Numbered from the stretch's first letter, positions 9,297 to 62,160 are shown. The stretch: DNA of 64,000 bases from Candidatus Yanofskybacteria bacterium RIFCSPLOWO2_02_FULL_44_18 (GCA_001794755.1 MGKT01000006.1:40700-104699), one strand, 5' to 3'. Made by a program: numbers and translations. The notes: generated by a model not told the origin, from the sequence alone.

Positions 9297-9309
9297 TAGA
9301 GGTTTTTTG
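9283..9309. terminator. bidirectional intrinsic terminator between convergent rpsT and ftsW
   Basis: AAAAACCTCT-TAAT-AGAGGTTTTTT is a perfect 10-bp stem flanked by an A-tract and a T-tract, overlapping the rpsT stop. Confidence 0.7.
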
Positions 9310-9310
9310 A

Positions 9311-10384: not shown

Positions 10385-10411
10385 TCATTAATTTTATTAC
10401 ACATTCTAAAG

Positions 10412-10441
10412 TATAAAAAGGGGCGACCCGTGGGCCGCCCT
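10412..10441 (-). terminator. GC-rich intrinsic terminator of the high-GC islet gene
   Basis: On the minus strand GGGCGGCCC-ACG-GGUCGCCC (8 bp including one G-U pair) is followed by TTTTTAT, immediately 3' of the 120-aa ORF. Confidence 0.55.
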
Positions 10442-10459
10442 GATGTGAGATGCTACATG

Positions 10460-10822
10460 CTACTTCGCCGACTCCTTCTTTTGCCACGCTCGATGCGTGG
10501 ATACCGCGCACGCGATCTGCCGCCTCGTCGCACCGTAGTGACGTGCGAGATTGTCTCGCATCTTCCGATACTGCGGAGTCTTGTGGTCCAGTGACCCCAG
10601 CTTCGTGCGAATCTCGTCGCACTCGGACGGCGTGAGTTCCCGAGCGGCCTTCTTGAGCAGGCGCCGCCGACGCTTGCCTCCGTTCGTGTCGCTTCCGACA
10701 TCCGACGACAGTCCCAGCATCGCCGCCGGGAGCTCGAGAATCTCGTCCGCCGTGGCGGACGAAACCCACTCCACCGCCCTCCTACGAAGCGCCTCAATGG
10801 CGCTCAAAAATGCTTTCGGCAT
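10460..10822 (-). CDS. horizontally acquired small basic protein with a putative HTH (sigma-70 region-4-like) motif, inside a 62% GC islet
   Basis: 120-aa ORF preceded by GGAGGGATAATC-ATG, a strong SD that is atypical for this genome. It contains …YGATRRQIACAVS…. The islet (10400-10830) is about 62% GC against a background of about 42%. Because of the high GC, other frames are also open (10453..10797, 10551..11015), but only this frame has SD, ATG and a terminator. Confidence 0.5.
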   Translation of the reverse strand: MPKAFLSAIEALRRRAVEWVSSATADEILELPAAMLGLSSDVGSDTNGGKRRRRLLKKAARELTPSECDEIRTKLGSLDHKTPQYRKMRDNLARHYGATRRQIACAVSTHRAWQKKESAK

Positions 10823-10885
10823 GATTATCCCTCCATATTTGTATTATAACACACGCCATGGCTATCTGTCAACTATTTCACTTAT

Positions 10886-11950
10886 TCAAAACAGGGGCGG
10901 GATTTTTGAGTCGATTAGAAAAATAATAAGCCCGATAGCCGCTCCCATGGCGTTTATCATCCAAAAGCGCATTGTAATTTGCGTTTCCGGCCAGCCGATG
11001 GCTTCAAACGTATGATGAATGGGCGTTGACGGGAAAATTTTTCTTTTAAGAAATTTCTTTGAAAACATCTGCACGATGACTGATAATGATTCCATGAGAG
11101 GCACTACGGCAATGAGCGGCAATAAAAGGGCGGTGTCAGTCAGCAGGGCCACTCCGGCGATGACAAAACCCAGCGCCATCACCCCGGTATCTCCCATGAA
11201 AAACTTAGCAGGATAAATGTTAAACCATAGGAATCCAATGAGCGCTCCCATAATCGCGGCCATAAAAGCCACTAAATCCATGCGGCCCTGATCAAAAGCA
11301 ATAATAGTGTAAGCCGCAAACATAATCAGATAAATGCCCCCGGATAAGCCATCAAGGCCGTCTGTTTCATTCATGGAAAATGCCGTCGCCACCATAATGA
11401 AAATAAAATACGGAATATAAAACCATCCCACAAAAATATCGCCTAAAAACGGAACGTTAATAAAATTGCGACCGAGTTTAAAAAAGAACCACCACGCCCC
11501 GATTACGGACAGGACGGTAAATATAAGCAATCTTTTTGATAAGCCGAAACCGCCTCTTTTAAAAACGCCTAGTGCATCATCGGCAAACCCCGCAATTCCG
11601 GCGATGATAAGCAGTCCCAGCGGAAGCCATGTCTGATTTCTGGACAAGAAATTGAGACGCCCCCAAAATCCGTCAAAATAAAAAGACAACGCCCACAAGC
11701 CCAGCGTGATAATCGATACCGTGACCCAAATCGGGAAACCGCCCATCGTCGGCGTACCTTCTTTTTTCTTGTGAAGAGCGTTAAAAATCGGTTTGTCCGG
11801 CCGTTCGATTTGCTTGCCGGGTTTGAAATACCTCAATAATATCTTTGTCCAGAAATGCGTGATTATGAGATTTAAAAAGAAAGCGATGGTGGCAACGACA
11901 AAAATCCTAACGACATTGGCAACCGTAAATAAATCTTGAATATCGTTCAT
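10886..11950 (-). CDS. mraY: phospho-N-acetylmuramoyl-pentapeptide transferase MraY
   Basis: 354 aa, polytopic, with MraY motifs …NETDGLDGLSGG…, …FMGDTGVMALG… and …HHTFEAIGW…. Confidence 0.9.
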   Translation of the reverse strand: MNDIQDLFTVANVVRIFVVATIAFFLNLIITHFWTKILLRYFKPGKQIERPDKPIFNALHKKKEGTPTMGGFPIWVTVSIITLGLWALSFYFDGFWGRLNFLSRNQTWLPLGLLIIAGIAGFADDALGVFKRGGFGLSKRLLIFTVLSVIGAWWFFFKLGRNFINVPFLGDIFVGWFYIPYFIFIMVATAFSMNETDGLDGLSGGIYLIMFAAYTIIAFDQGRMDLVAFMAAIMGALIGFLWFNIYPAKFFMGDTGVMALGFVIAGVALLTDTALLLPLIAVVPLMESLSVIVQMFSKKFLKRKIFPSTPIHHTFEAIGWPETQITMRFWMINAMGAAIGLIIFLIDSKIPPLF

Positions 11951-11951
11951 A

Positions 11952-12887
11952 TTATTCCCAGCGATATGATGATTTAACCCAATTAATTAATTTTTCCGTC
12001 TCTCCGAATCTGTCTTTGGATCCGAGCACGACACTAATTAGTGTATCATTTTTTTCGGGGATACTCACCAGTAAAACAAGACAGCCCAGAGCGTTATCTG
12101 TGTTTCCGGTTTTGCCGCCGATGATATTGGGAAGATTTCCCAAAAGGATATTCGTATTCTTAAGGGCATGCATTATTTTACCGTCTAGGGATTGAACGGA
12201 TGATTCCTTTTGCCTTAAGAATTCCCATATCATATCGTGTTTCATGGCGTATCGGGAAATTCTTACCATGTCCTGAGCGGATGAGTAGCCTTCGTCATTC
12301 AATCCGGCCGGATCGAGAAAGTTCGTGTCATTTAACCCCAAAGTCGAGATTTTTTGATTCATTGCTTCAACCAAGTTAATTCCCTTTTGAGACGCATAAT
12401 CTTTAAGAGCGTAGGCCGCGTCATTTGACGAGTCAACCAGCATCATTTTTAACAAATCCTCGATTTTAAGTAATTCGCCTTCATAAAGATCCTGTTTTTC
12501 TCCGTCGACTCTGACAGCCGCTGCGGACACAGCCACCGTATCCCTGGTGTTAAATTTCTCCAAAACAACAACCGCCGTTATTATTTTAGTCAGCGAAGCC
12601 ACCGGCAATCTTTGCCGAGAATTTTTTTCGTACAAAAAACGGCCTGAACGGATATCGTAGACGGCCGCTGATTTTGCGCCGATGCCCGAGATGTCTGAAT
12701 TTGAATCCAAGATTGGAAAATAGCTGGGCTCAGCCAATGGCAAGACATACGCCTGCGTGCTGTTAAAAAAAGGATTGCGGGTTATGCCGTCCGGTTGCTC
12801 GGTTTGAAAACTCGCAAACACAAAAGTCGTCAAACCAAGGGCAATTACCGCAAGAATAATTATCGATAAATAGGGTCGGATGGCCAT
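11952..12887 (-). CDS. D-alanyl-D-alanine carboxypeptidase (peptidase S11, low-MW PBP)
   Basis: 311 aa with an N-terminal TM anchor, the SxxK motif (ASLTKIIT), an SxN motif (SSND) and KTG (GGKTGNT). Confidence 0.8.
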   Translation of the reverse strand: MAIRPYLSIIILAVIALGLTTFVFASFQTEQPDGITRNPFFNSTQAYVLPLAEPSYFPILDSNSDISGIGAKSAAVYDIRSGRFLYEKNSRQRLPVASLTKIITAVVVLEKFNTRDTVAVSAAAVRVDGEKQDLYEGELLKIEDLLKMMLVDSSNDAAYALKDYASQKGINLVEAMNQKISTLGLNDTNFLDPAGLNDEGYSSAQDMVRISRYAMKHDMIWEFLRQKESSVQSLDGKIMHALKNTNILLGNLPNIIGGKTGNTDNALGCLVLLVSIPEKNDTLISVVLGSKDRFGETEKLINWVKSSYRWE

Positions 12888-12902
12888 TGGCGATTTTAAG
12901 CA

Positions 12903-14297
12903 TTATTTCTCCAGTTTCAGCTTCAGTTCCCTCAACTGCTTAGGGCTAATTTCAGACGGCGACTCCATCATAAGATCTCTCGCGTCTCCCGTTTTCGGAA
13001 AGGCGATTACTTCTCTGATGTTGGGTTCATTATTTAAAAGAGTAATCAAACGATCAAGGCCCCATGCGATTCCGCCGTGAGGCGGGGCGCCCAGACCCAA
13101 TGCCTCCAGCATGTGTCCGAAATTATCACGGATAGCATTCTTTTCAAATCCCATAATTTCGAAAACGGATTCCAGAGCTTCAGGCCGGTGGTTGCGAAGG
13201 CTCCCGCCGCCGATTTCCGATCCATTCAGAACAACGTCATACTGGGAAGTAAGAATATCATCAATATTCTTTTTATCCAGTAAGTCAGACATATATTCGG
13301 GCTTCGGAGCGGAAAACGGATTGTGTGTGAATGTGTATCTGCCAGATTCTTCATCTTTTTCAAAAAACGGAAAGTCGATAATCCAGCAAAAGGCCAAAAG
13401 ATTGGGGTCATTTTTGTCGTTTCTTAAATCGGGCCTGTCTGTCCCGTATTTTTCCATCGCCTCTTTAAAAGAAAGTCTTGGAAACGGGATTTCCTGGATT
13501 TTCTTTTCCGGGCATATTTTTTCGACGATATCTATCAGCAGTTCTTCATTGATGTTTATGAGATTTTCCCTGTCCGCGAAACTCATTTCCAAATCGAGCT
13601 GGGTAAATTCCGGCTGCCTGTCTCCCCTCGTATCCTCGTCCCGAAAACATCTGGCGATTTGAAAATATTTCTCAACTCCGCCGACCATTAACAATTGTTT
13701 GTATTGCTGGGGTGATTGGGGCAAAGCAAAAAACTTTCCCGGATACATGCGGGACGGGACGACATAATCTCTGGCTCCTTCTGGAGTCGATTTGGTTAAA
13801 ATGGGCGTCTCGATTTCGATAAAGCCTCTATTGTCAAGCCAATTGCGGATAAACAATATAATTTTATGTCTGACAGACATATTCTTTGACATCCTCTGTC
13901 TTCTCAAATCAATATATCTGTACTTCATCCGATTCTCCTCGCCAATCTCATATCCGTCCGTATCCAGAGCGAATGGCGGCGTTGCCGCTTCATTGAGAAT
14001 ATCCACCTCCAGCGGCGACAGTTCCACTTTACCCGTTTCCAATTCCGGATTAATCATTTTCTCGGGTCTGGCCTGAACCCGCCCTTTAACATTAACGACC
14101 CATTCCGATCTTAATTTTTCGGCTTTCTTGTATATTTCCTCATTATCCGGAGTAAAAACAACTTGAATCACTCCCGTCTTGTCCCTTAAATCAAGAAATA
14201 TCAGTTTGCCGTGATCGCGGCGATTATGAACCCAGCCGAATAAATTAACTTCCACGTCAATCAAATCTTTAGTTTCGCGGATATGGGTCCTTTGCAT
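12903..14297 (-). CDS. aspS: aspartyl-tRNA synthetase (short form lacking the GAD insertion)
   Basis: 464 aa with an N-terminal OB anticodon-binding domain (LFGWVHNRRDHGKLIFLDLRD) and class II motifs (FRDEDTRGDRQPEFTQLD; GGGSLRNH; GLGAPPHGGIAWGLDRL). Confidence 0.9.
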   Translation of the reverse strand: MQRTHIRETKDLIDVEVNLFGWVHNRRDHGKLIFLDLRDKTGVIQVVFTPDNEEIYKKAEKLRSEWVVNVKGRVQARPEKMINPELETGKVELSPLEVDILNEAATPPFALDTDGYEIGEENRMKYRYIDLRRQRMSKNMSVRHKIILFIRNWLDNRGFIEIETPILTKSTPEGARDYVVPSRMYPGKFFALPQSPQQYKQLLMVGGVEKYFQIARCFRDEDTRGDRQPEFTQLDLEMSFADRENLININEELLIDIVEKICPEKKIQEIPFPRLSFKEAMEKYGTDRPDLRNDKNDPNLLAFCWIIDFPFFEKDEESGRYTFTHNPFSAPKPEYMSDLLDKKNIDDILTSQYDVVLNGSEIGGGSLRNHRPEALESVFEIMGFEKNAIRDNFGHMLEALGLGAPPHGGIAWGLDRLITLLNNEPNIREVIAFPKTGDARDLMMESPSEISPKQLRELKLKLEK

Positions 14298-14344
14298 TAA
14301 CTAATATTACCAACAAAAATCCGCTCGTTCAAGCGGATATCTAT

Positions 14345-15370
14345 CTAAATGTCTATCAAGGCGTGGTCAAGAGTTCTATCGATTTTCGACATAAGTTCGA
14401 AAAGCTTATGTTTCACGTCCATGTAATCTGAAGGGCTCATTTCCGGTTTGAAGGGGCTACGTTGATGAGGCAAATCCACCAAAATAGACGCCGTCAATCT
14501 TTCGAGAAGATTTAGGGTAATGCACTCGGCCAGCCACGCTTCGGCGAAATAATTACTGCCGGCATTCACAAAGCCTCGCAGCCATCTCAAGCAATGGAAA
14601 AGAAGGGTATCGGCATCAAATTTATCAACCAGATGTAAAACATCATTCCAAATCCAGGCCGCGGGCGGATAAATCGGCCCTCTCTCCACAATCGGCGAGT
14701 TTAGAACATAATAATAATGACTCGAGAATCTGATGTCAGTGTTACCGAAATGGGCGAAAAAGTAAGATGGGACCATCATCGGCTGTCCGGCTTTTTCGAT
14801 TATCCGGTCGCGATATCTGGACAATGTTCTCAACTCATCAGGCGATAATGTCTCGGGTTTGCCCTCTGCGCCGAACCATTTATCAAATCTCTGTCTGAAA
14901 TAATCCGGCGCTGATAACTGCGGCGGTTTAAAATCCTTAAACACAAAATACGTCCGCCAGTAAATCAGCGTGACTTTGGCTATCTCTTCATCGGAAGGCC
15001 GCGCGATTTCTCTGACTGGAGAGATGTTGCTTTCCAATTTCTTGTGAATGACGTAGTCAAAAGCCTGACTATTAAATCTGGTCCCGCCGGCCCGTAAAAC
15101 AGTGGGCGCTCGCAATGCCAGCGATACGTTTTGAGTCTGTCTTATTTTCTCGTACTTCTGCCAGTCAGCCGCCGAATCAAATAAATTAACATCGGCTTCT
15201 CCGGCCACAATTAGAGTAGCGGGATGTCCTCTGTACCGGCCGTGCTTGATAATTTCTCTAAGCTGGCCCTGACCCAGACGCACTTGCCAGCCGGGATTGG
15301 AATTATCTTCCTCAAAATCGGTCGCTGAAATTACCACATTGTACCCTTCTAGCAAATCTTGAGTTTTCAT
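14345..15370 (-). CDS. hypothetical protein (341 aa), no recognisable domain
   Basis: Long ORF with coding-like composition and no motif I can assign. It borders the tRNA-Lys island. Confidence 0.4.
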   Translation of the reverse strand: MKTQDLLEGYNVVISATDFEEDNSNPGWQVRLGQGQLREIIKHGRYRGHPATLIVAGEADVNLFDSAADWQKYEKIRQTQNVSLALRAPTVLRAGGTRFNSQAFDYVIHKKLESNISPVREIARPSDEEIAKVTLIYWRTYFVFKDFKPPQLSAPDYFRQRFDKWFGAEGKPETLSPDELRTLSRYRDRIIEKAGQPMMVPSYFFAHFGNTDIRFSSHYYYVLNSPIVERGPIYPPAAWIWNDVLHLVDKFDADTLLFHCLRWLRGFVNAGSNYFAEAWLAECITLNLLERLTASILVDLPHQRSPFKPEMSPSDYMDVKHKLFELMSKIDRTLDHALIDI

Positions 15371-15482
15371 GTTTCTCCATTCTAAAACAACTGGCGATGA
15401 TAGTAAACAACATTTTCCTCCTTGTCAATATTTAAAAATAATCGGATAGGAAATATAATCCCTGAAGTACATGGGTGGGATT

Positions 15483-15743
15483 ATGAACGACTGGCGCAGA
15501 AGAGAATTGGAAATAATTAAAAATAGATTGCGTCTTGATGGCCATCCGTCACTGGCGGCCATTGAAGCGGAAATTTCAAACATCAGCTACGGCCCGCCGT
15601 TAGACCAAGTCGAGGTAGATATCCTAAAGCACATCCGTATGCTTATCGAAACTTATAGAGCATTGAGGATAAGAAGTAACTGGCAAAACCTGACTGAAGG
15701 CGACAAACAAATGCTCAAAGAATTCCACATTGCCGCCCATTAG
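15483..15743 (+). CDS. hypothetical small protein (86 aa)
   Basis: ORF MNDWRRRELEIIKNRL… preceded by GGTGGGATT (SD-like) and an upstream TATAAT. It is followed by a clean terminator. Confidence 0.4.
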   Translation: MNDWRRRELEIIKNRLRLDGHPSLAAIEAEISNISYGPPLDQVEVDILKHIRMLIETYRALRIRSNWQNLTEGDKQMLKEFHIAAH

Positions 15744-15764
15744 ACCCTAAAGGGTCTTTTTTCG
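15744..15764 (+). terminator. intrinsic terminator of the small + strand ORF
   Basis: GACCCTAAAGGGTC hairpin followed by TTTTTT, directly after the TAG stop. Confidence 0.65.
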
Positions 15765-15844
15765 CCTTTCTCGTCCGGCAGACAACTCCGTTGTCCGCCC
15801 TGCAGGACTCGGTCACGGATAATTTGCTCGTCAGTCACTCGCAA
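15763..15844. repeat. att-like direct repeat copy 3: X arm + tRNA-Lys 3'-end core + Y arm
   Basis: cgcctttctcgtccggcagacaac(t)c(c)gttg + TCCGCCCTGCAGGACTCG + gtcacggataatttgctcgtcagtcactcgcaa. The core is identical to the tRNA-Lys 3' end (19800-19817). The X arm is identical (2 mismatches) to the sequence flanking the tRNA (19769-19799), and the Y arm is identical to 19685-19717. Confidence 0.75.
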
Positions 15845-15853
15845 TGAGAACCG

Positions 15854-15883
15854 AGCCCAGCGTTAATCACGCTGGGCTTTTTG
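15854..15883 (+). terminator. hairpin (9-bp stem) + T-tract overlapping the stop codon of the PEP-utilizing gene; terminator-like on the + strand
   Basis: AGCCCAGCG-TTAATCA-CGCTGGGCT followed by TTTTG. The minus-strand gene's TAA stop sits in the loop. Confidence 0.45.
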
Positions 15884-18800
15884 AATGATGTGAACTACTC
15901 CTTTATTTCCATCTACTTCTACAATGTCCCCGTCTTTAATGAGGTCAGTAGCATTTCCAGTTCCTACTACACAGGGGATGTTCATTTCTCGACTCACGAT
16001 AGCGGCGTGAGACATCATGCCTCCTTGATTGGTAACAATTGCAGAAGCTTTTGAGCAAACGGGCATAAGCTCTGGCGAAGTAGTTTCTGCTATAAGAATA
16101 TCTCCGTTCACCATACTTTCCATTATCTTTTTCAGCCCATCAAAATTTCCATAATCAGCAATAATAACCTTTGCCATGCCTCTAACTTTTCCCTTATTGG
16201 CTGTTTTACCTTTAATTTCAGAGTGGAATTCGGGGGTAACAGTGTCAAATTTAGATACGATTACTTCCGCTTCTTTTCCATTTATATAAGTAAGATTCTC
16301 CCCATCACCAATCATTACATATGCACACTTTCTATCTTCTAAAATTGATGTTGAGACTTTTTGGTTTTCAAACAAATTAAGTAAATCACTCCTACTGTAA
16401 AGCATCAAAGAGTCCACTTCTACTCTAAATTGCTTTTGGAGTATGCTTAATATGGAAAAAAGAGCACTTTCGCTACCAAAGAATAATTTATTAAGATATT
16501 CACGTCCCGAATTTTTGATGCGCTCAAAATGCTTTAGATTCTCACTAGTTATTTCATCATTAAGTGAATACTGGTAAGCATCATCTGTAGCAAAGAACTC
16601 TGTTCTTCGATAAAAATGAAAGAGAGTTGACAAATTGATTAAAAACTCTTCCAAGTCTGCTCTAGTCAGCCTATCCTTTTTAGAGATTTTCTCAAAGTGT
16701 TCTGCTGTCTTCTTTTTATATGCTTCAAAACCATTACTATACTCATCAAATTTTTCCTTACTGCTGTATAGTTCTACCCCTTCTATTAGCGTATCTTTTA
16801 TAGATTGTTTTGGTAGATAAGTAGTCCAGATTCCATGTGCCAACATAGAAAACCCTTTAATCTTTTTGTATTCAGTCATAAAGATATCCGAAATGATATA
16901 AGGCATTCCCCCTACTTGGAAAAGTCTCTGATAATAATTGGGATCTTTAATGCCTAGATTATTTTCAATTATCTTTATAACACCAGTATCCGCATTCACT
17001 TCCACTAAGTCTCCATCCTTGAGTACTTTTGTTGCAATTTTTGTTCCTATAATGCAGGGTTTTCCCATCTCTCTTGCTGTAATGGCGGCGTGACTAGTGA
17101 CACCTCCTTCGTCAGTGACAAAAGCTGATGCTTTCTTCATGGCTGGTAAGAAGTCTGGGTTTGTCATCGGAGTCACCATAATGTCGCCTTCGTTTACTCT
17201 ATTGATATCAGTTTTAGTTAAGACTATTACCACTTTTCCTTTTGAGATTCCCTTATGAGCAACATTACCCCTTATCTCATTTGTTCCACTTATAACCTCA
17301 TCTTTTTCAATTTCAATACCAAGTTCTCGTTCGACCTGGATTAATGTCCTGTTATAGTAAAATTTATGGTCGTGAAAGATAAAATGTTCATCTCGTTTTC
17401 TCAACTCGTCTACAGTCGGTAACATACCTAAAATCTCATTGATGCTTAAAATCTTGGAGAAAGGAATTGCATAATCGGGGACAATCATCGGTATTGCTTT
17501 TTCAAATGTGGCGTTGGCATTGTAAAAGAAGTCTTCTGTTGATTTTCTTTGCTCTAGGCAGGCTTCTTTAGCTTTTGATGGCGCATCTTCAATTGCAGGC
17601 ACAAAATATATTATTGCGAATAAACTTTGAGTTCTGGCAAGCTTTTCGAAGAAAACTTCAAGGTTTTTCTTATTGGGTTTACTCAACAGCTGGCTTTCAA
17701 GCTTTTTTATTTCCTTTAATGCTTTCTGATAATTTTCAGTGATTTCTTCTACCCAGCCACTTCTAGCCAATTTTTTCTTAATAGCTTTAGTGGCATCAGC
17801 AAAAATCTTCTCATCTTCATATACTGTAAGCATTCCATTCGCTCGCTCGTAGACCAGTCTATCTGTAGTAACTCCTATCCAATTTTCAAGATATTCCGTA
17901 TCGCTTTTCTCCCAAAATTCGATAGCTGCTACGCATACATCTCTACTAACATTTTTTTTAAATAATGATTTCTTTTCACTGAACTCACCAATTATAGATA
18001 AATCTTCATCGATTAAGATATTATTTTCTTCTTGGAATTTCTCTAGATCTTTCCCAGTCGTTATATTCCCTTCAAAGAAAATAAAGAAGTCGTTTCGATT
18101 ATCAAGAGTTTCTTTATTTGGGATTTTATTGGAAAGCAATTCCTTAATTGATATGACATTTGCGTATTCCGCCAAATCAGGATATTGAAATTTAATTGCT
18201 CCAATTAGGGCATCTCCATGTTCATACTCGCCTGCCTGTGAGAGTTCTCTTAATTTGTAAGATTTTTCTATAATCGCTTTTGGAAGTTCCTTATTTGTGC
18301 TATTCCCAAATTGAACTATCACAGGCAAAAATCCCCAAAAATCCACGGAAGTTTTGTAAAAATCTTTTATATTTGTGTTTCGATAATTTATAGCAAATTG
18401 ATGCAGTTTCTTATAATCTTCCTCAAACTTTTTAGCTAAAGGTCTAAATTTGTCAGGATTATTTATAAAGAAATCAAAAAGCGGCTTAATGGCGGTATCC
18501 GGATTGTTGATGTCGTAGTAAACACTTGTATTGCCATCACTCGTTTTTATAAATAATGGATTAAATCTAGTTGAACCTTGTAGGAGTTTATTGAAAGCAT
18601 CATATTCGCCCTCCCACCAGTATTCCATAGTTACGAGGGAGAGCTTCCTGGTAAAGAATTTTTTGAAATGTCTTATGGGAGTTTTATTGGAAAGAGTGGT
18701 AATAGGTCTGCTCTGAGTTATGTAAAATTTACCATCCTCATATGCCCACTCAATATCACAAGGAAATCCGTAATGGTTTTCAATCTTAATTACAAGGTCA

Positions 18801-19630
18801 GCTAATTCCATAATCTGCGACACATTTAACACCTGTGATGAAGCTTTTGGCTCTGGTATTTCCTTCCACTCATTTTCTCCCCTTCTCGATTTATACAGAC
18901 CTCTCCTTTGAGTATTTACTGTTGTATCAATTATTTGTCTCGACTCCTTTTCAACAACATAAGAGTCGGGAGTTATAGAACCAGATACAATAGCCTCCCC
19001 AAGCCCAAAGCCAGCTTCGATGATGAGTTGATTTCTATCCTCCGTAATTGGATGGACCGAAAACGCTATTCCAGATACTTCCGACTGAACCATTTTCTGC
19101 ACCACAACGGCTACGGAAATACCCGTGCCGTGAAGTTCTTTTTCGAAGCGATAAAAGATTGCTCTGGGAGTAAAGAGAGAAGACCAGCATTTCTTAACTT
19201 TATCGAGTAAGTCATCTTCCGTGGTATTTAAATAACTCTCTAACTGACCTGCCCAGGCATGCTCCGCTCCGTCCTCTGCTGTGGCAGATGAGCGAACGGC
19301 CACAAACTCCGCCCGGAGTGCCTTAGATGCCCTTAAAATCTCGTCAGAAATGTCTTGCGGCAATTCTTCATTCTCAATTAGCCCTCGTATCTTTTCGGAA
19401 GCGCCCTCTACGGTGTGTATTGCTTTGTGGTCTACAGTCTTGAGTATCGCCTCAATTTCTTGAGCTAAATCTGTTTCGTGTAAAAATCGGTCAAAGGTTC
19501 CAGAGAGCACAACAAAACCATCTGGCACAGGAAGTCCTGCTTGTGTCATCTCACCAAGAGATGAACCTTTACCACCAGCGAGAAGTGAGTCGGTCTTCTT
19601 TATTTCATTAAAATTTTTAATCAGTTCCAT
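15863..19630 (-). CDS. PEP-utilizing enzyme family giant protein: PPDK-N (ATP-grasp nucleotide-binding) domain + two phosphohistidine swivel domains, no PEP/pyruvate TIM barrel (rifampin-phosphotransferase-like architecture, duplicated His domain)
   Basis: 1255 aa. The N-terminal ~310 aa match the PEP synthase/PPDK ATP-binding domain (…VAVRSSATAEDG…, …CDIEWAYEDGKFYITQSRPIT). Two PEP-utilizing 'mobile' domains carry the catalytic His motifs GGVTSHAAITAREMGKPCIIG (~aa 830) and GGMMSHAAIVSREMNIPCVVG (~aa 1200). An SD-like AAGGGATT precedes the ATG. AT content is higher than that of neighbouring genes. Confidence 0.8.
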   Translation of the reverse strand: MELIKNFNEIKKTDSLLAGGKGSSLGEMTQAGLPVPDGFVVLSGTFDRFLHETDLAQEIEAILKTVDHKAIHTVEGASEKIRGLIENEELPQDISDEILRASKALRAEFVAVRSSATAEDGAEHAWAGQLESYLNTTEDDLLDKVKKCWSSLFTPRAIFYRFEKELHGTGISVAVVVQKMVQSEVSGIAFSVHPITEDRNQLIIEAGFGLGEAIVSGSITPDSYVVEKESRQIIDTTVNTQRRGLYKSRRGENEWKEIPEPKASSQVLNVSQIMELADLVIKIENHYGFPCDIEWAYEDGKFYITQSRPITTLSNKTPIRHFKKFFTRKLSLVTMEYWWEGEYDAFNKLLQGSTRFNPLFIKTSDGNTSVYYDINNPDTAIKPLFDFFINNPDKFRPLAKKFEEDYKKLHQFAINYRNTNIKDFYKTSVDFWGFLPVIVQFGNSTNKELPKAIIEKSYKLRELSQAGEYEHGDALIGAIKFQYPDLAEYANVISIKELLSNKIPNKETLDNRNDFFIFFEGNITTGKDLEKFQEENNILIDEDLSIIGEFSEKKSLFKKNVSRDVCVAAIEFWEKSDTEYLENWIGVTTDRLVYERANGMLTVYEDEKIFADATKAIKKKLARSGWVEEITENYQKALKEIKKLESQLLSKPNKKNLEVFFEKLARTQSLFAIIYFVPAIEDAPSKAKEACLEQRKSTEDFFYNANATFEKAIPMIVPDYAIPFSKILSINEILGMLPTVDELRKRDEHFIFHDHKFYYNRTLIQVERELGIEIEKDEVISGTNEIRGNVAHKGISKGKVVIVLTKTDINRVNEGDIMVTPMTNPDFLPAMKKASAFVTDEGGVTSHAAITAREMGKPCIIGTKIATKVLKDGDLVEVNADTGVIKIIENNLGIKDPNYYQRLFQVGGMPYIISDIFMTEYKKIKGFSMLAHGIWTTYLPKQSIKDTLIEGVELYSSKEKFDEYSNGFEAYKKKTAEHFEKISKKDRLTRADLEEFLINLSTLFHFYRRTEFFATDDAYQYSLNDEITSENLKHFERIKNSGREYLNKLFFGSESALFSILSILQKQFRVEVDSLMLYSRSDLLNLFENQKVSTSILEDRKCAYVMIGDGENLTYINGKEAEVIVSKFDTVTPEFHSEIKGKTANKGKVRGMAKVIIADYGNFDGLKKIMESMVNGDILIAETTSPELMPVCSKASAIVTNQGGMMSHAAIVSREMNIPCVVGTGNATDLIKDGDIVEVDGNKGVVHIIQKAQRD

Positions 19631-19663
19631 AATCCCTTATCATCGACGTTAGCGACCCTATGT

Positions 19664-19717
19664 TTGTCCGCCCTGCAGGACTCGGTCACGGATAATTTGC
19701 TCGTCAGTCACTCGCAA
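19664..19717. repeat. att-like direct repeat copy 2: tRNA-Lys 3'-end core + Y arm
   Basis: TTGTCCGCCCTGCAGGACTCG + gtcacggataatttgctcgtcagtcactcgcaa, identical to 15791-15844. Confidence 0.75.
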
Positions 19718-19740
19718 ATTTCCTTGACCACGGCTCGCGG

Positions 19741-19760
19741 TTGCAATCTGCTGATTGCAA
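19741..19760. repeat. perfect palindrome TTGCAATC-TGCTG-ATTGCAA in the spacer between att copies
   Basis: 7-bp inverted arms (TTGCAAT/ATTGCAA) around a 6-nt centre. It is the only palindrome in the 50-bp spacer between repeat copies 1 and 2. Confidence 0.5.
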
Positions 19761-19799
19761 CATCGCTCCGCCTTTCTCGTCCGGCAGACAACTTCGTTG

Positions 19800-19872
19800 T
19801 CCGCCCTGCAGGACTCGAACCTGCGACCCTCTGCTTAAAAGGCAGGTGCTCTACCAACTGAGCTAAGGGCGG
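19800..19872 (-). tRNA. tRNA-Lys (anticodon UUU)
   Basis: Minus-strand sequence CCGCCCT-TA-GCTC-AGTTGGTA-GAGC-A-CCTGC-CTTTTAA-GCAGA-GGGTC-GCAGG-TTCGAGT-CCTGC-AGGGCGG-A. The acceptor stem (7 bp), D arm, anticodon arm and T arm all form. The anticodon loop CU-UUU-AA has U33 and A37. CCA is not encoded. Confidence 0.85.
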
Positions 19873-19903
19873 AATATTTATGAAATCATACCACATAATG
19901 GAC

Positions 19904-19937
19904 TGAAAACCAACAAAAAGGCACCTTGTTAGGTGCT
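19904..19937 (-). terminator. intrinsic terminator of the 289-aa gene, upstream of tRNA-Lys
   Basis: On the minus strand GCACC-TAACAA-GGTGC is followed by CTTTTTGTTGGTTTT. Confidence 0.55.
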
Positions 19938-20807
19938 TTACGACAAAAGAATCGCCCGCCTTGCTTCCCTGATTAATTCATCGTTTATAACTTTTTGGCA
20001 TTGCGGCGCTTCTGCAAAGTTCTTAGCCCGTTCTTGCTCATACCGCTTTTCCTCGTTTCTAAAATCGTTCAGTAAATCAAGATAATGATAATACTTCGCA
20101 ACACGCTCTGAGGTATCGCGATGCAACAGAACAAGTGTGATTTTATCTTCCTCATTAGTCCATTTTACGCCTACGTCACCCCTAACAATTCCTGCATGAG
20201 GAAGGGTGAACCTATTCTTGAATTCATTGTTGAATGCCTCTTCCTCCCTTTCTTCCTCCATATTCGATGCCGGAACGACTACTTGGCTATGGTGAAGGTA
20301 ATAATAATAATACCCATTATGAACTTGAGAATAAGAACCGGGATTTGACCGGATGTCGCATCGTGAGATAAAATCTGCCCATTTTAAAACACTGTCGAAA
20401 AATGGCTTCAAGGCATTAGGCAATGAATCCAGAGATAATTGTTGGCCGAGACATATTATCAATGACTGACTGCTGGTTTTTTGCTCAAGTATGGGCCGAA
20501 GCTCATTTAGAATCCTATCCAGAATATCCGGCCTTCTAGTACACGCGATCCGAAATCTTTTATCTGTCATTCTGCATCTTAGACGAAAGCGAATCGCTTT
20601 TAAACCTGTTCCAACATGCCAAGTAATCCATATCACTGATTCATATATTTTACCTTTAATAAATGATTCAATGTCGATTGTGTACGCATCTTCAATGGGC
20701 GGAATCACTGGACAGGCTTCCAAGATATCAATGGATGGGATTTCACCATTTACACCTTGAGCATCATACCTTCTTCTCCAGCCGTATGTTATGGGAACAC
20801 TACACAT
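19938..20807 (-). CDS. hypothetical protein (289 aa), no recognisable domain
   Basis: Long ORF that includes an acidic stretch (MEEEREEEAF) and a Tyr run (HNGYYYYYLHH). It sits between the HD hydrolase and tRNA-Lys. Confidence 0.4.
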   Translation of the reverse strand: MCSVPITYGWRRRYDAQGVNGEIPSIDILEACPVIPPIEDAYTIDIESFIKGKIYESVIWITWHVGTGLKAIRFRLRCRMTDKRFRIACTRRPDILDRILNELRPILEQKTSSQSLIICLGQQLSLDSLPNALKPFFDSVLKWADFISRCDIRSNPGSYSQVHNGYYYYYLHHSQVVVPASNMEEEREEEAFNNEFKNRFTLPHAGIVRGDVGVKWTNEEDKITLVLLHRDTSERVAKYYHYLDLLNDFRNEEKRYEQERAKNFAEAPQCQKVINDELIREARRAILLS

Positions 20808-20877
20808 ATACTCCTCTCAATGAACTAGGGATTATATCTCACAATATATGCAAAACGTCAAGGCGGTGGGACAATGA

Positions 20878-22128
20878 TTATTTTTTAAGCACTGACATTA
20901 TCTTGTCGGCATTTTCAAATATTAAATTCCTGTCGCCGATGATGCAGACCCTTACCGCAAGATAGTCTTCGAGTTCTGATTTCATGGACTCAAAATATTC
21001 CTTATGGGTTTTTTTCAGCGACATAACTTCGCCGTTATCGTGGTATACAATATCCTGCGGTTCAAATCGCCAAGGATTGAGAATCGGCACAATCACAATC
21101 TTGAAGGAATCAGCGCCGATAATTTTCGAAATTTGGCTCTCCAATTTTTCCAGATTCGCCGGTGAATTTCTTTTTGCGAATTTCTCAAAAAAATTAACAT
21201 CTTCGCCGACTACTTTGATATTTTTCCCGGCAATTCTTTCTCTTATCCTTCGGCTTTTCAATCTCACCACAAGCCCTGTCCGGGGCAGATTTCTTTCAAC
21301 CAGGGCTTGATATTGCCAGCGAAGAACGGCATCTTCGCTTAAAAATATTCTGGCCATAATCTGATGGTCGTTCATTTTCCAAAGATCAGGCGGTTTTATT
21401 TTTTCCTTCAGAATCAGTCTGGCAATTATTTTTTGCATGAATCTCTGCGAAATCAGAGTGGATTTATGCAGATACACTTCCTTGTACATATAGATATACA
21501 GTCTTTGGATTTGTTTTGCCGCTTCCAACGCTTTTTTATCAATGACCATATTGCCGTCCATAAAAGTAGAATAATCCAATATTGTTTCGACATCCGGCCT
21601 CTGGCCGAAACCGGTATGATATGTGTCCCGCTCAAGATAATCGAGCTTATCCGTGCCGATATTTCTGTCCATTACAATCCGATAAAGGCTATTCTTGCGA
21701 TTAAATAGTGTCAGAATAAAATTATAATCCCCGCCTGATTTTGTAATCGCTGTTTTTAGAGACTTGATGATTCTGGCCCCGTTTTTGTCGTGATCATACG
21801 GAGTTAATTCCTCGATAACATGGGAAAACGGGCCGTGGCCGATGTCATGAAGCAGACCGAAAAGAGAGATATTCAACGCTTCTTTATGGTTGAGAATATA
21901 ATCCGTAATCAGGCGCTGGCAAAAATTCCTAGTTTTATGATAAACGCCCAAAGCATGCTCAAACCGGTTATGGGTCGCGCCGGGGAAAACGCTCAAAGTC
22001 GTGCCCAGCTGGCCGACATGCAAAAGCCGCTGAAATAGCGGATGATTTATTATCGGTAATATGTTCCTGACGTCGATGCTTACTCCCGGCGGTATTCGAA
22101 TATACTTCTTGTAGTGTCCGGACTCCAT
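20878..22128 (-). CDS. HD-domain dNTP triphosphohydrolase-like protein (Dgt/SAMHD1 family)
   Basis: 416 aa with the motifs …HNRFEHALGVYH…, LLHDIGHGPFSH and …DKLDYLERDTYHTG…, which are diagnostic of the dGTPase/SAMHD1 HD subfamily. Confidence 0.75.
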   Translation of the reverse strand: MESGHYKKYIRIPPGVSIDVRNILPIINHPLFQRLLHVGQLGTTLSVFPGATHNRFEHALGVYHKTRNFCQRLITDYILNHKEALNISLFGLLHDIGHGPFSHVIEELTPYDHDKNGARIIKSLKTAITKSGGDYNFILTLFNRKNSLYRIVMDRNIGTDKLDYLERDTYHTGFGQRPDVETILDYSTFMDGNMVIDKKALEAAKQIQRLYIYMYKEVYLHKSTLISQRFMQKIIARLILKEKIKPPDLWKMNDHQIMARIFLSEDAVLRWQYQALVERNLPRTGLVVRLKSRRIRERIAGKNIKVVGEDVNFFEKFAKRNSPANLEKLESQISKIIGADSFKIVIVPILNPWRFEPQDIVYHDNGEVMSLKKTHKEYFESMKSELEDYLAVRVCIIGDRNLIFENADKIMSVLKK

Positions 22129-22171
22129 ATCCAGAAACTAACAAAATATGGATTACTGGTAAAGGAATGAT

Positions 22172-23740
22172 CTACTCTTTTTTCTTCAAAGCATCCTGAA
22201 GCAGTTTTCTCAATTCATCGGTATTGGTTTCCTTTTTCTCTTTGTCCTTCTGGCTTTTTTCAACCCGGCGGCCTTTAAAATCAACGGCCCCTCTGTTTAA
22301 GTCTCGCAATGAGGCGGACCTGGAGCCGACATTGGCTTCTTGTATTCGGCTGCGGCGGTCGGCATCCCTGGCCGGTGGACGCATCGGGGCCGGCGGGCGG
22401 ATCGGACTTCTCTGGGGCGTAAACTGCCTTTCTCTTTCCATATTTTCTTGGGCCACCCATCCCATCCAGTCCGCAGTATGTTTTTCGACAATTTCTTTCG
22501 GCGTCGTAAACTGTTCGCGCGATGCGGAGACAATTTCTTTTTTGAAATTTACTTCCGGTTTCGGAAACGGCGGCAATGTCCCGGCTGAAAACGGCTTAGA
22601 GGAGATACCATCAATCATCAGTCTTAAATATATGTTGTATTTTCCCAAATTGACCAAATCCGTCATTGTAAAATCAGGTTCATACCATCTTTCCAGAAAT
22701 TCGGCGTCCTCCGCTCCGACGCGGAATGTGACTAAAGTGCCGACGTTGCCGAATACGGCATCTCTGACGACTTCTTCCATTTGAGTAATATACTGATGGC
22801 CCAGCGTCAGGCATAAATGGTATTTTCTGGCCTCGGATAATATGTTTACGAACGATTCGGTGGCAAAATTTTGAAACTCATCGACATAGAGATAAAAATC
22901 AGGCCGCTGATTTTCAGGCACATCAACGCGCGACATGGCTGCTAGCTGTAGTTTAGTAATCAAAAGCGCTCCCAAAAGACGCGAAGCATCCTCGCCAATT
23001 TCGCCTTTTGACACGTTTACAATTAATATCTTGCCCTCATCCATAATCTTGCGCATGTCGATTTTTGAACGCGGCTGGCCGATGATATTCCTGATAACGT
23101 TGTTGGAACTGAATTGGCCAACCTTATTTTGAATCGCGGCTGTGGCTTCGGTCGCAAACTTATCCGCATATTTCGCGAATTCATCAATCCAGAAACCTTT
23201 GACAATCGGGTCTTTGATGTTGGATACGACCTCTTTTCGATATTCCTTGTTGGAAAGCATCCGGTTGATGCCGAGAATGGTGGAATTGGGATACTCAAGC
23301 AAGGCCAGTATCGTGTTATTTAAAATATATTCCATTCGGCCCGACCAGGCATCCACCCATATTTTCTTGAAAACACCCAGAAGACCGCTGGCCACGAGAT
23401 GGCGATATTCAAAAGGGACTTTCTCCATGACGTTGAACGCGATTGGAAAATCAAGGTCATTGGGTTGGAAATATATAACGTCTTTGATTCTCTCTTCTGG
23501 CACGAAATCAAGAAGGTCAATCGCTGCGTCTCCGTGAGGATCAATAAAGGCAACGCCGCGTCCGGCTTCGATGTCCTGTATGGCCATGTTCTTCATGAGC
23601 TCAGATTTGCCCATACCGGTCGAGCCGATAACGTAAACGTGGCGGCGGCGGTCATCCGGTTTTACGCCAAATCGAACTTTCTTGTTCCGAAAATTTGTCT
23701 CTCCCAAAAATACGATATCTCTTTCGTCTGTTTGTCTCAT
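22172..23740 (-). CDS. VirD4/TraD/TraG-like type IV secretion coupling-protein ATPase homologue (T4SS DNA-transfer domain)
   Basis: 522 aa with Walker A VIGSTGMGKSE, …FIDPHGD…, Walker B-like …LYVDEFQNF…, and a long charged, disordered C-tail. Confidence 0.65.
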   Translation of the reverse strand: MRQTDERDIVFLGETNFRNKKVRFGVKPDDRRRHVYVIGSTGMGKSELMKNMAIQDIEAGRGVAFIDPHGDAAIDLLDFVPEERIKDVIYFQPNDLDFPIAFNVMEKVPFEYRHLVASGLLGVFKKIWVDAWSGRMEYILNNTILALLEYPNSTILGINRMLSNKEYRKEVVSNIKDPIVKGFWIDEFAKYADKFATEATAAIQNKVGQFSSNNVIRNIIGQPRSKIDMRKIMDEGKILIVNVSKGEIGEDASRLLGALLITKLQLAAMSRVDVPENQRPDFYLYVDEFQNFATESFVNILSEARKYHLCLTLGHQYITQMEEVVRDAVFGNVGTLVTFRVGAEDAEFLERWYEPDFTMTDLVNLGKYNIYLRLMIDGISSKPFSAGTLPPFPKPEVNFKKEIVSASREQFTTPKEIVEKHTADWMGWVAQENMERERQFTPQRSPIRPPAPMRPPARDADRRSRIQEANVGSRSASLRDLNRGAVDFKGRRVEKSQKDKEKKETNTDELRKLLQDALKKKE

Positions 23741-24987
23741 ATTGGCAGATCAGCCGGCGCCTCCCCTTTCTTGGCCTCAATCCTGGGCAACGTCGCTGTT
23801 TTTACTCCAACATCGGGTATATGGAATATCGACGCCAATTCTTCCGTGTTTAAAACATAAGATTTATCCAAAAATTTTCTTTTTTTGTATCCTTTGTATA
23901 ACTCCACTTTATGATTATACTCTCTGCTTTTTTTAAATACCCAATCAAAATCCGCCGAGATTTTCTTAAAACCGTTGAGGCTTAAGGACGAGAACTGCTT
24001 CAACGTGCCGGATATAACGGCCGGGCGGCTTTTGTTGAATGTCTCCACCGGAGATATGTATACCATTCTTAGGGTGGATTTAAATCCCAATTTTGTGATA
24101 TTTCTTTCAATCGCCTTCAATGCCTCCAGCTTTCCGGGTGTTAATTTCATGCTTGAGAATTCATCCGCTTTCTTATCATCTTTACCCCCAGCCCCGAACA
24201 AAGAATCAATGAAGTCAAAAAACACATTGAATATGTTTTTCTTTACTTCTTCCTTCTTGCCCGTCAGCTTGTCAATTACTTTCTGGGAGTCTTTAACCCA
24301 GTCTTCTCCTTTTTTTGACTGGATTAGTATTTGTAACGCCAGACACTCGCCGGGTCCAAGCAGACTCATGCCTTCAACCAGCGAAGCCAAGGGATCAATT
24401 CTTTGATATTCGTCTTTTCCAGGATTTTTTTCCTCAAAATCGACATAGGTTCGAATCGGATAGGCATCGGGTTTTTCCAGCGTGAATTCACCGACGGCTA
24501 TGTCTGTTTTGTCATCGGGAAGCGTATCGGGATACGCGGCCATATAATCATCAGCGAGGTAAATTTCAGCTTCCGGAAACTGGGCGTATATTGATGACTC
24601 GACCAGATTCCGATGCGCTTCAAGAGTTCTGATAAAAAAATGTATTTCTCCGCCCATGCTCACCAATTCCAAGGAAAACCAATCGCCGACTTTGCCTTTC
24701 CAAAATCCTTCAACCCACTTTTTTCTGACACCGCCCGGAGCGCTGTGCAAAGCGGCAAAAATCTGCTCCATGGCCAAAGGGCTGCGTTTTGATTCTCGGG
24801 GTAATTTCAATTCAAGCATTATCCACTTGAGATTGGATAGGTATATGGATTTTTTGTAATCCTTGAACATGTCAAAGACGACCAAAAACAAAATCACGGG
24901 CGCAATCGCCCACCAATATGAGAACATTGTTAAAAAAACGTTTCCGAGAATATCCCAAACGGGACCTAAAAAGTCAGTGACTAGCAT
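23737..24987 (-). CDS. membrane protein co-encoded with (4-nt overlap) the VirD4-like ATPase; function unknown
   Basis: 416 aa with two N-terminal TM helices and then a soluble domain. Its stop and the ATPase start overlap by 4 nt. Confidence 0.45.
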   Translation of the reverse strand: MLVTDFLGPVWDILGNVFLTMFSYWWAIAPVILFLVVFDMFKDYKKSIYLSNLKWIMLELKLPRESKRSPLAMEQIFAALHSAPGGVRKKWVEGFWKGKVGDWFSLELVSMGGEIHFFIRTLEAHRNLVESSIYAQFPEAEIYLADDYMAAYPDTLPDDKTDIAVGEFTLEKPDAYPIRTYVDFEEKNPGKDEYQRIDPLASLVEGMSLLGPGECLALQILIQSKKGEDWVKDSQKVIDKLTGKKEEVKKNIFNVFFDFIDSLFGAGGKDDKKADEFSSMKLTPGKLEALKAIERNITKLGFKSTLRMVYISPVETFNKSRPAVISGTLKQFSSLSLNGFKKISADFDWVFKKSREYNHKVELYKGYKKRKFLDKSYVLNTEELASIFHIPDVGVKTATLPRIEAKKGEAPADLPI

Positions 24988-25035
24988 ATCGTAATTCTAA
25001 TCTAACCGTAGGCATCAATCAATACTCCGTGTTGG

Positions 25036-25067
25036 GCGCAATCCCGATGGCCTCATCGGGATTGCGC
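25036..25067. repeat. perfect 14-bp GC-rich inverted repeat (GCGCAATCCCGATG-gcct-CATCGGGATTGCGC)
   Basis: 14/14 complementarity with a 4-nt loop and no flanking U-tract on either strand. It lies between the stop of the sigma-r4 gene and the start of the membrane-protein gene. Confidence 0.6.
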
Positions 25068-25080
25068 GAATTGACTTTGA

Positions 25081-26139: not shown

Positions 26140-26181
26140 CTATATTATATATTATATCATTTCGCATAAAATACGTCAATA

Positions 26182-28337: not shown

Positions 28338-28376
28338 GTCTTAATTATTAAAACACACCTATAATTTTTTGCAAAT

Positions 28377-28398
28377 AAAAAACGGGGCTTTCACCCCG
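28377..28398 (-). terminator. intrinsic terminator of the NYN gene
   Basis: On the minus strand CGGGG-TGAAAG-CCCCG is followed by TTTTTT. Confidence 0.6.
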
Positions 28399-28424
28399 TC
28401 ATCCTCGTTTAGAGGATACCACTA

Positions 28425-62090: not shown

Positions 62091-62160
62091 AATCAAATAA
62101 TACCACAAAAATCTGGATTTGTGAAGATAGGCAAAAGAATTAAATGATTAAAAAGAGATG

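Follow-up and report, generated by a model that had tools for sequence, protein, structure and literature searches.

The 64-kb window analysed here (64,000 nucleotides; MGKT01000006.1:40700-104699 of assembly GCA_001794755.1, Candidatus Yanofskybacteria bacterium RIFCSPLOWO2_02_FULL_44_18) carries, directly downstream of the 3' end of an intact tRNA-Lys gene, an islet in which a single phosphoenolpyruvate (PEP)-utilizing gene lies between direct copies of the tRNA 3' segment. The reading we favour, in which we place about as much trust as doubt, is that this islet is an integrase-less relic of tRNA-targeted integration that has become a polymorphic one-gene slot, the alleles of which are now exchanged largely by homologous recombination. 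The source population, uncultured and from Rifle groundwater, belongs to the Parcubacteria, part of the Candidate Phyla Radiation (CPR); metagenome-assembled genomes named Candidatus Wolfebacteria GW2011_GWB1_41_12 and Candidatus Yanofskybacteria encode proteins identical to the cargo product and to those of the neighbouring genes.

Mobile DNA and gene flow in CPR bacteria are poorly charted, and the locus provides a clean, population-resolved instance of a one-gene flexible slot at a tRNA gene, with two accessory genes, a kinase like rifampin phosphotransferase or PEP synthase and a tRNA-dependent cyclodipeptide synthase (CDPS), and a distant relative that shows the same repeat footprint. Islands at tRNA genes, tandem attachment-site (att) repeats and integrase-less derivatives are well known; new here are the CPR host, the pairing of one gene with a gene-less, folding 112-nt module, the palindrome formed by the repeat core and its flank, and the pair of alleles at population level.

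Repeats of the tRNA-Lys 3' end

The original prediction, made from the window sequence alone, held that the 18-nt end of tRNA-Lys occurs three times in direct orientation, and this is borne out by exact matches at 15794, 19667 and 19800 (expected in shuffled sequence, 0); the sequence common to all three copies is in fact 21 nt long (+ strand TTGTCCGCCCTGCAGGACTCG). In the tRNA direction core copy 1 reads CGAGTCCTGCAGGGCGGA plus CAA (19817-19797) and comprises the T-loop CGAGT, the 3' strand of the T-stem, the 3' strand of the acceptor stem and the discriminator, followed by CAA. Like the att cores of tRNA-targeting elements, the repeats have their boundaries in the T-loop and just past the discriminator.

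Read in the direction of the tRNA, the order is tRNA 5' part, core 1, the flank X'a, a spacer, the arm Y', core 2 and a leader, then the 1255-amino-acid (aa) gene, an 18-nt tail, a second Y', core 3, the second flank copy X'b and the terminator of a convergent open reading frame (ORF), so that direct repeats of the tRNA 3' segment stand at both borders of the islet (Table 1). Only one ORF (15863-19630, minus strand) lies between copies 2 and 3, as predicted, and the interval X'a-spacer-Y' between the tRNA and core 2 comprises 112 nt and is gene-less.

Table 1. Components of the tRNA-Lys islet in window coordinates, listed in the direction of the tRNA
Feature	Position	Strand	Basis
tRNA-Lys(UUU), intact	19799-19872	-	ARAGORN; Rfam RF00005 tRNA, 71.8 bits
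Core copy 1, 21 nt (last 18 nt of tRNA + CAA)	19797-19817	-	Exact string and repeat search
X'a, flank 3' of tRNA, 28 nt	19769-19796	-	Repeat search, folding
Spacer, 51 nt, with perfect 9-bp palindromic hairpin	19718-19768	-	Repeat search, folding
Y' arm, proximal copy, 33 nt, abutting upstream side of core copy 2	19685-19717	-	Repeat search
Core copy 2, 21 nt, exact	19664-19684	-	Exact string and repeat search
Leader (Z), 33 nt, core 2 to cargo start codon, with weak AAGGG ribosome-binding motif	19631-19663	-	Sequence
Cargo gene, 1255 aa	15863-19630	-	ORF call, Pfam
Tail with 9-11-bp hairpin (~15854-15878), cargo stop codon in loop	15845-15884	+	Sequence, folding
Y' arm, distal copy, identical to proximal	15812-15844	-	Repeat search
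Core copy 3, 21 nt, exact	15791-15811	-	Exact string and repeat search
X'b, second copy of tRNA-downstream flank	15763-15790	-	Repeat search, folding
Terminator of convergent 86/90-aa ORF (15471-15743, +)	15742-15762	+	Right border of repeat structure

The arms around the cores are mosaic, as had been noted: Y' and core together form a 54-nt repeat of 100% identity (15791-15844 and 19664-19717), and core and X' form a 49-nt repeat of 98% identity (15763-15811 and 19769-19817), in which the flank carries one mismatch rather than the two first counted. This sole difference between X'a and X'b, A to G, lies in a hairpin loop. X' repeats the core in inverted orientation, GTCC(TGCAG)GGCGGACAAC-GRA-GTTGTCTGCC-GGAC (GAA in X'a), and the resulting core+X' palindromes, which span 19779-19814 at the tRNA end and 15773-15808 at copy 3, have a geometry of approximately 10-3-10, i.e. 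10-bp arms around a 3-nt gap. The spacer holds a second, perfect palindrome with a 4-nt loop, the arms of which (GTTGCAATC, 19740-19748; GATTGCAAC, 19753-19761) are 9 bp long; the palindrome had been predicted correctly, albeit with 7-bp arms and in a spacer given as 50 rather than 51 bp. Whether taken as RNA or as single-stranded DNA (ssDNA), the 135-nt stretch that starts at the tRNA end and includes core 2 has a far more stable fold than shuffled sequence (z ~ -5.9, equalled by 0 of 200 shuffles).

Neither Y', X' nor the core has further copies in the window, even at 3-6 mismatches, and a search there for degenerate extra cores found none; being confined to this locus within the 64 kb, the repeats are not those of a dispersed family, the outcome that had been named in advance as counting against integration. 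No similarity to the 5' part of the tRNA is present upstream of copies 2 and 3, and these are therefore not decayed tandem tRNA genes.

Two cargo alleles in one aquifer

The three-copy structure is reproduced in independent assemblies (JGI L004, MEGAHIT L005 and L109, NCBI L006/L110, and L112), and its identity across different assemblers indicates that it is not an assembly artefact; the repeats, of 54 nt or less, are also exceeded in length by the final k-mers, which the contig names give as k127 to k141. In the NCBI record LCAK01000004.1 (L001/L003/L010) an N gap falls inside the tRNA-to-core-2 unit (~9090 in L003), and after it the sequence resumes in the tRNA T-arm as an unmerged overlap. 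A complete second 133-bp tandem unit is seen only in the scaffolds of one pipeline (L002/L012, L011), which is weak evidence and leaves the copy number of the unit uncertain.

Six contigs from the same aquifer, L007 and five short ones of other samples, have a gene for a 227-aa CDPS (PF16715) where the window has the PEP-utilizing gene. The junctions are the same in all six, ...Y'-CGAaTCC/gaagaac...CDPS...tagtttcgaatttag/GACAACGgAGTTGTC (X'b; slashes mark the junctions). To the left, the CDPS allele matches the window at 99.99% over 9130 bp, the lone mismatch being a G to A inside core 2, and the two alleles part after the first 3 nt (CGA) of that core; to the right, the CDPS allele has a differing terminator beside X'b. 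The further contig L112 combines the PEP cargo with the terminator variant of the CDPS allele, from which it differs, a few flank single-nucleotide polymorphisms aside, only between the CGA of core 2 and the GGACAAC of core 3; the terminator polymorphism thus reassorts independently of the cargo, and homologous exchange acts at the locus. Several contigs end at the tRNA or the unit (L002, L008, L009, L111, L114, L117), and these, together with the short (~1 kb) CDPS contigs, look like assembly bubbles from co-existing alleles.

At both CDPS-allele junctions (L007 9126-9135 and 9930-9945) there is a T-loop-like YCGAATYY with A. The A variant matches the tRNA-Lys of a sister species (TTCGAATCC, L115 9860-9882), the resident tRNA having TTCGAGTCC, and this likeness hints that the CDPS segment may derive from a lineage with another tRNA-Lys variant.

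The site in related genomes

A scan for the tRNA 3' end led to L107/L108, a distant relative (TrwB 59-67% and HD 36-45% identical) that keeps the synteny TrwB-HD-tRNA-Lys. In L107 a second copy of the 21-nt tRNA end, with one mismatch and the same boundaries, lies 169 nt downstream and is followed by unrelated, co-oriented small ORFs. The intervening 148 nt again fold strongly (z -4.4) and contain perfect palindromes of 9 and 12 bp; the tRNA end of L107 has no X'-like palindrome. The blocks that the window and L107 units seem to have in common fall short of significance (z = 1.25, equalled by 98 of 1000 shuffles), and homology of the two is accordingly not claimed.

In the sister species L115/L116 (HD 60% identical) the synteny runs SecDF-sigma-DUF8128-TrwB-HD-(120 aa)-tRNA-Lys-terminator-(70 aa, reverse)-AspRS-S11-MraY-FtsW, and tRNA-Lys is bare, i.e. 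without any duplicated tRNA end; the distance from the tRNA to the aspartyl-tRNA synthetase gene (AspRS) is ~375-390 nt, vs ~5.5 kb in the window. A search of genome contigs with AspRS, in a collection from which the species of the window is absent, found tRNA-Lys nearby only in L060 (3827-3900) and L062 (8821-8894), in the same neighbourhood, without repeats and on the opposite strand relative to TrwB/HD and AspRS, from which it follows that the tRNA-Lys gene was inverted in one of the lineages.

More widely, the region 9300-29000 is syntenic across Yanofskybacteria-like genomes (L114, L115, L116, L060, L107/L108), with SecD-SecF, a sigma-70-like protein, DUF8128, a TrwB/VirD4-like coupling ATPase, HD hydrolase, tRNA-Lys, AspRS, S11 peptidase, MraY and FtsW in that order. 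Its sole strongly variable part is the interval from HD to AspRS (~1 kb in L115, ~3.9 kb in L060 and ~6.6 kb in the window).

Search for a recombinase

The claim that no recombinase is encoded nearby is in keeping with the Pfam results: neither the cargo nor the ±10 kb covered by precomputed annotation shows a recombinase domain, and none was detected among the tested ORFs of at least 150 aa elsewhere in the window, a scan that comprised all such ORFs except three at 61110-63575 and that took in shorter ORFs (<150 aa) only within ±10 kb. The PEP-utilizing gene being the sole gene of the islet, the latter encodes no tyrosine or serine integrase of its own, nor (by Pfam) any other recombination or transfer gene, and a related element with an integrase was seen neither in the window nor among the sequences of the viral, plasmid and phage collections. 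For the flanking ORFs of unknown function (289, 330/341 and 86 aa) there were no Pfam or PHROG matches, and for the 289- and 341-aa proteins no sequence matches in the PDB; single-sequence AlphaFold models of the 330-aa and 289-aa proteins reached a pLDDT (predicted local distance difference test) of 38 and 36 and were unusable.

Origin of the islet

The recurrence of the repeat boundaries in a distant lineage, the presence of Y' before each non-tRNA copy, the AT-rich alternative cargos and the bare site of the sister species together make up the signature of classical tRNA-3'-end integration, followed by tandem accretion and decay. On this reading a recombinase, encoded elsewhere or since lost, would have recombined the 21-nt segment from the T-loop to just past the discriminator, which, alone or with its palindromic flank X', would have served as att core. 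After further events in succession and some decay there would then have remained the intact tRNA, the 112-nt folding remnant X'a-spacer-Y' and core 2, and beyond these one promoter-proximal cargo gene followed by Y', core 3 and X'b. The slot is now polymorphic in the population, holding either the PEP-utilizing kinase or the cyclodipeptide synthase, with present-day exchange of alleles probably proceeding mainly by homologous recombination via the identical flanks. The islet itself is presumably immobile today, and may, as a relic resembling the cis-mobilizable elements (CIMEs) discussed below, possibly still be mobilizable in trans.

A number of observations weigh against this reading. Copy 1 is, like copy 3, followed by X' and so resembles an intact attB rather than an attL. 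The description of copy 3 as a textbook attR has for the same reason to be given up: its combination of arms is not unique, and X' inverts the core, making core+X' a palindrome, whilst the interval between copies 1 and 2 duplicates chromosomal flank. Simple integration does not predict X' after both copies, and an extra step is needed, for which flank capture, an att identity block that reaches 28 nt past the tRNA, and duplication are candidates. The CDPS allele is without intact cores, its junctions reading Y'-CGAaTCC/... and ...TTTCGAATTTAG/GACAAC, and a single conservative crossover inside core 2 does not yield them. Homologous exchange could by itself move the alleles. The flanking ORFs, with models of pLDDT below 40, could be cryptic recombinases. 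Low GC content is not specific to the islet, the glycan-synthesis cluster at 38-64 kb being as AT-rich as the cargo.

Comparison with relatives, proposed in the original prediction as a check, yielded alternative cargo (CDPS, in six assemblies) and a bare tRNA-Lys in the sister species; no strain-level empty site appeared among the places obtained from exact-protein look-ups, in which collapsed 'similar' places could hide one. The circular form that was to be looked for did not materialise: no circular junction is present in any assembly examined, and in a blastn search of the whole islet against plasmids and phages nearly every best match listed lay in the tRNA gene, with one weak ppsA segment besides. 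Neither the tRNA-to-core-2 unit nor the cargo was found in the viral, plasmid and phage collections among the best matches listed; viral contigs scanned with Y', the spacer palindrome and the tRNA end gave no matches, and nor did an X' scan of a metagenome contig collection that lacks this population. The original interpretation is supported in part: the boundaries, their second occurrence in L107, the alternative cargo, the bare sister site and the outcome of the recombinase scan speak for it, and neither a circle, a strain-level empty site nor intact cores at the CDPS junctions were seen.

Two parsings of the repeats remain. The islet may consist, along the lines of the original prediction, of two tandem elements, the 112-nt remnant and a 3.87-kb cassette bounded by the 54-nt repeat, or of one element of 4.0 kb that has the 49-nt core+X' repeat as its borders, copy 2 then being internal and the crossover falling in GACAACG. 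Should a trans-acting recombinase exist, the islet would represent a very small type of integrative cassette in CPR bacteria; should there be none, it would be an ordinary integration scar turned recombination hot spot. Its defined junction sequences make excision, integration or homologous swapping directly testable in the Rifle metagenome reads that already exist.

Alternative explanations

That the locus is purely a hot spot of homologous recombination, in which the repeats arose by slippage or unequal-exchange duplication near the tRNA, the cargo alleles, ordinary flexible genes specific to strains, were swapped by transformation and homologous recombination via the identical flanks, and no site-specific recombinase ever acted, has in our view a modest chance of being correct. 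The essentially identical flanks of the two alleles, the independent reassortment of the right-flank terminator in L112, the lack of clean cores at the CDPS junctions, the outcome of the integrase search and the failure to find either an empty site or a circle are all as this explanation would have it, and the possible extra 133-bp tandem unit (L002, L011) would fit unequal exchange. It has, however, to contend with repeat boundaries that match the tRNA 3' segment exactly, from T-loop to just past the discriminator, and that recur independently in the distant L107. On the left, moreover, the alleles show no difference over 9.1 kb other than the boundary itself, which falls a few nt into core 2 and is unusually sharp for homologous exchange, and random duplication leaves the position of Y' against both non-tRNA cores unexplained.

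We consider it unlikely that the islet is a single 4.0-kb element of Campbell type, with core+X' (49 nt) as identity block O and with spacer, Y' and cargo as its body, the non-coding left-end module being shared between elements and the recombinase, possibly a host Xer-like enzyme, acting in trans. The integration crossover would fall in the palindrome GGACAAC-GRA-GTTGTC at the tRNA end, and the attraction of such a scheme, which coincides with the second parsing above, is that one conservative crossover in GACAACG accounts exactly for both alleles, PEP and CDPS, and for the A/G difference that separates X'a from X'b in each. The stretch X'a-spacer-Y'-CGA (~115 nt) is 100% identical in both alleles, as a shared module should be, although this is explained equally well if the module is simply chromosomal. 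The 10-3-10 palindrome of core+X' and the strong folding of the 135-nt module, as RNA and ssDNA, also count in favour of the scheme. Known tyrosine-recombinase sites have overlap regions of 6-8 nt, unlike the 3-nt gap between the palindrome arms here; the internal 54-nt repeat demands an extra duplication, L107, the tRNA end of which is without an X'-like palindrome, does not support the scheme, and no circular form was found.

A bolder extension, and a decidedly improbable one, is that tRNA-Lys serves in some Parcubacteria as a platform for minimal cassettes, namely promoter-less single genes, each joined to a module of ~110-150 nt that is without genes, folds strongly and has a copy of the tRNA 3' end as its terminus. 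Insertion, by a recombinase encoded elsewhere, would take place in the palindrome of tRNA end and trailer, and transcription reading through from the tRNA promoter would express the genes, a logic like that of integrons or pdif modules.

It is more doubtful still that the tRNA-to-core-2 interval is a host-encoded structured RNA or DNA, such as a tRNA-trailer or processing module or an attC-like site, in which selection for pairing with X', rather than past integration, accounts for the repeated tRNA end. The window and L107 units both fold strongly, in each a perfect palindromic hairpin of 9-12 bp is accompanied by a closing stem in which the duplicated tRNA end takes part, the core sequence is kept between distant hosts where the neighbouring sequence is not, and in all three cases the cargo starts 33-63 nt past core 2, co-oriented with the tRNA. 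The two units are, however, without significant similarity to each other, the window unit has no Rfam match, and two lineages are all that is at hand for covariation; such an element is, moreover, absent from the sister species L115/L116 and from L060 and L062, and copy 3 is left unexplained.

An assembly artefact or a decayed tandem duplication of tRNA-Lys, as the N gap and unmerged overlap of the NCBI record and the contigs that end in the region could suggest, is effectively refuted by the identical three-copy structure in at least five independent assemblies, from different assemblers and with repeats shorter than the final k-mers, and by the lack of any trace of the tRNA 5' part upstream of copies 2 and 3.

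Comparison with known systems

Integrase-less, att-flanked elements (CIMEs) and tandem accretion at tRNA-Lys have been documented, with ICESt1/CIME in Streptococcus thermophilus and the composite IME_Sag2603_tRNAlys at the tRNA-Lys 3' end as examples (PMC5704250). The islet is like these in its direct repeats of the target 3' end, its three tandem att-like copies and its tRNA-Lys target, and like CIMEs it keeps repeats at both borders without integration or transfer genes of its own. Unlike composites of CIMEs with integrative and conjugative elements (ICEs), it shows no remnant of an ICE module or of one from an integrative mobilizable element, and no integrase-bearing partner element was found here; it differs further in consisting of a single gene, in having a proximal 'element' of 112 nt, in a flank X' that is duplicated and an inverted copy of the core, and in its Parcubacteria/CPR host.

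In the ssrA islands of Dehalococcoides the 3' end of a small-RNA gene recurs, directly and in tandem, as multiple 20-nt copies that start in the T-loop, and right upstream of each copy stands a conserved motif without alignment to the ssrA gene (PMC3146451). A streamlined host, repeats that start in the T-loop and strain-specific low-GC cargo are common to both, and Y' is analogous to the conserved upstream motif. In contrast, the integration module conserved in the Dehalococcoides islands includes a CcrB-like serine recombinase beside attL, whereas in the islet the 112 nt next to the tRNA are non-coding and no recombinase was found in the ORFs tested.

With integron cassettes the islet shares a co-oriented single-ORF unit near an upstream promoter-bearing gene and imperfectly palindromic folding sites, and a recombinase would act on it in trans. 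There is, however, no intI or attI, and no integrase domain in the tested ORFs of the window; GGACAAC and GTTGTCT violate the attC consensus RYYYAAC / GTTRRRY though the sites fold strongly, and the repeats derive from a tRNA 3' end. IMEX elements (integrative mobile elements exploiting Xer) and the pdif modules of Acinetobacter plasmids comprise one to a few genes between short palindromic sites, have no recombinase of their own and use those of the host. The islet is likewise a small module bracketed by short palindromic sites and without a recombinase gene; its palindrome is 10-3-10 and built from a tRNA 3' end, unlike the 11-6-11 dif-like sites, and it lies at a tRNA gene rather than at dif or on a plasmid, so that Xer dependence cannot be inferred.

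Cargo genes and composition

Pfam assigns to the 1255-aa cargo a PPDK_N ATP-grasp domain and two PEP-utilizer swivel (phosphohistidine) domains, with no match to a PEP/pyruvate-binding domain. Its best solved relatives in the PDB are PEP synthases, including Listeria enzymes labelled PEP synthase, which we take to be rifampin phosphotransferases; the cargo resembles enzymes of both kinds. Members of the family abound in Patescibacteria and DPANN, the nearest non-self relatives being only 70% (partial) and 44% identical, and the closest (P0002, 70%) has another gene context without a tRNA.

The cargo had been described as richer in AT than its neighbours, with a Shine-Dalgarno (SD) sequence that most native genes lack. 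The first part holds locally (GC 0.373, and 0.311 for the CDPS cargo, vs 0.41-0.47 in the flanks) and fails against the cluster at 38-64 kb mentioned above; the second is weak, the SD being no more than a faint AAGGG and an SD-like 4-mer occurring in 10 of 50 window genes.

In L006/L110 (NCBI GCA_001000905.1) a frameshift splits the cargo into ORFs of 192 and 1076 aa, and the convergent small ORF has a 69-nt in-frame deletion (63 aa vs 86); these changes reflect either islet decay in one strain or assembly errors. A terminator-like signal at 15854-15884, a T-run after a GC-rich hairpin on the + strand, is antisense to the cargo that it ends.

The idea that CDPS genes are generally tRNA-linked cassettes in Patescibacteria was rejected, relatives of the islet CDPS lying in a tRNA-free operon of helix-turn-helix (HTH) regulator, CDPS and SET. 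This operon is conserved in L099-L102 (Patescibacteria), where a 133-aa protein follows the SET-domain methyltransferase, whereas the CDPS of the islet is a solo gene.

Elsewhere in the window, a GC-rich (~0.49) stretch between FtsW and MraY (10377-10822) holds several overlapping ORFs, among them a 120-aa arginine-rich ORF that is called as a gene in all assemblies and is without family assignment. The cluster at 38000-64000 (GC 0.34-0.40), which encodes glycosyltransferases, sugar aminotransferases, methyltransferases, a flippase-like protein and an ABC transporter, is probably likewise flexible and subject to horizontal exchange.

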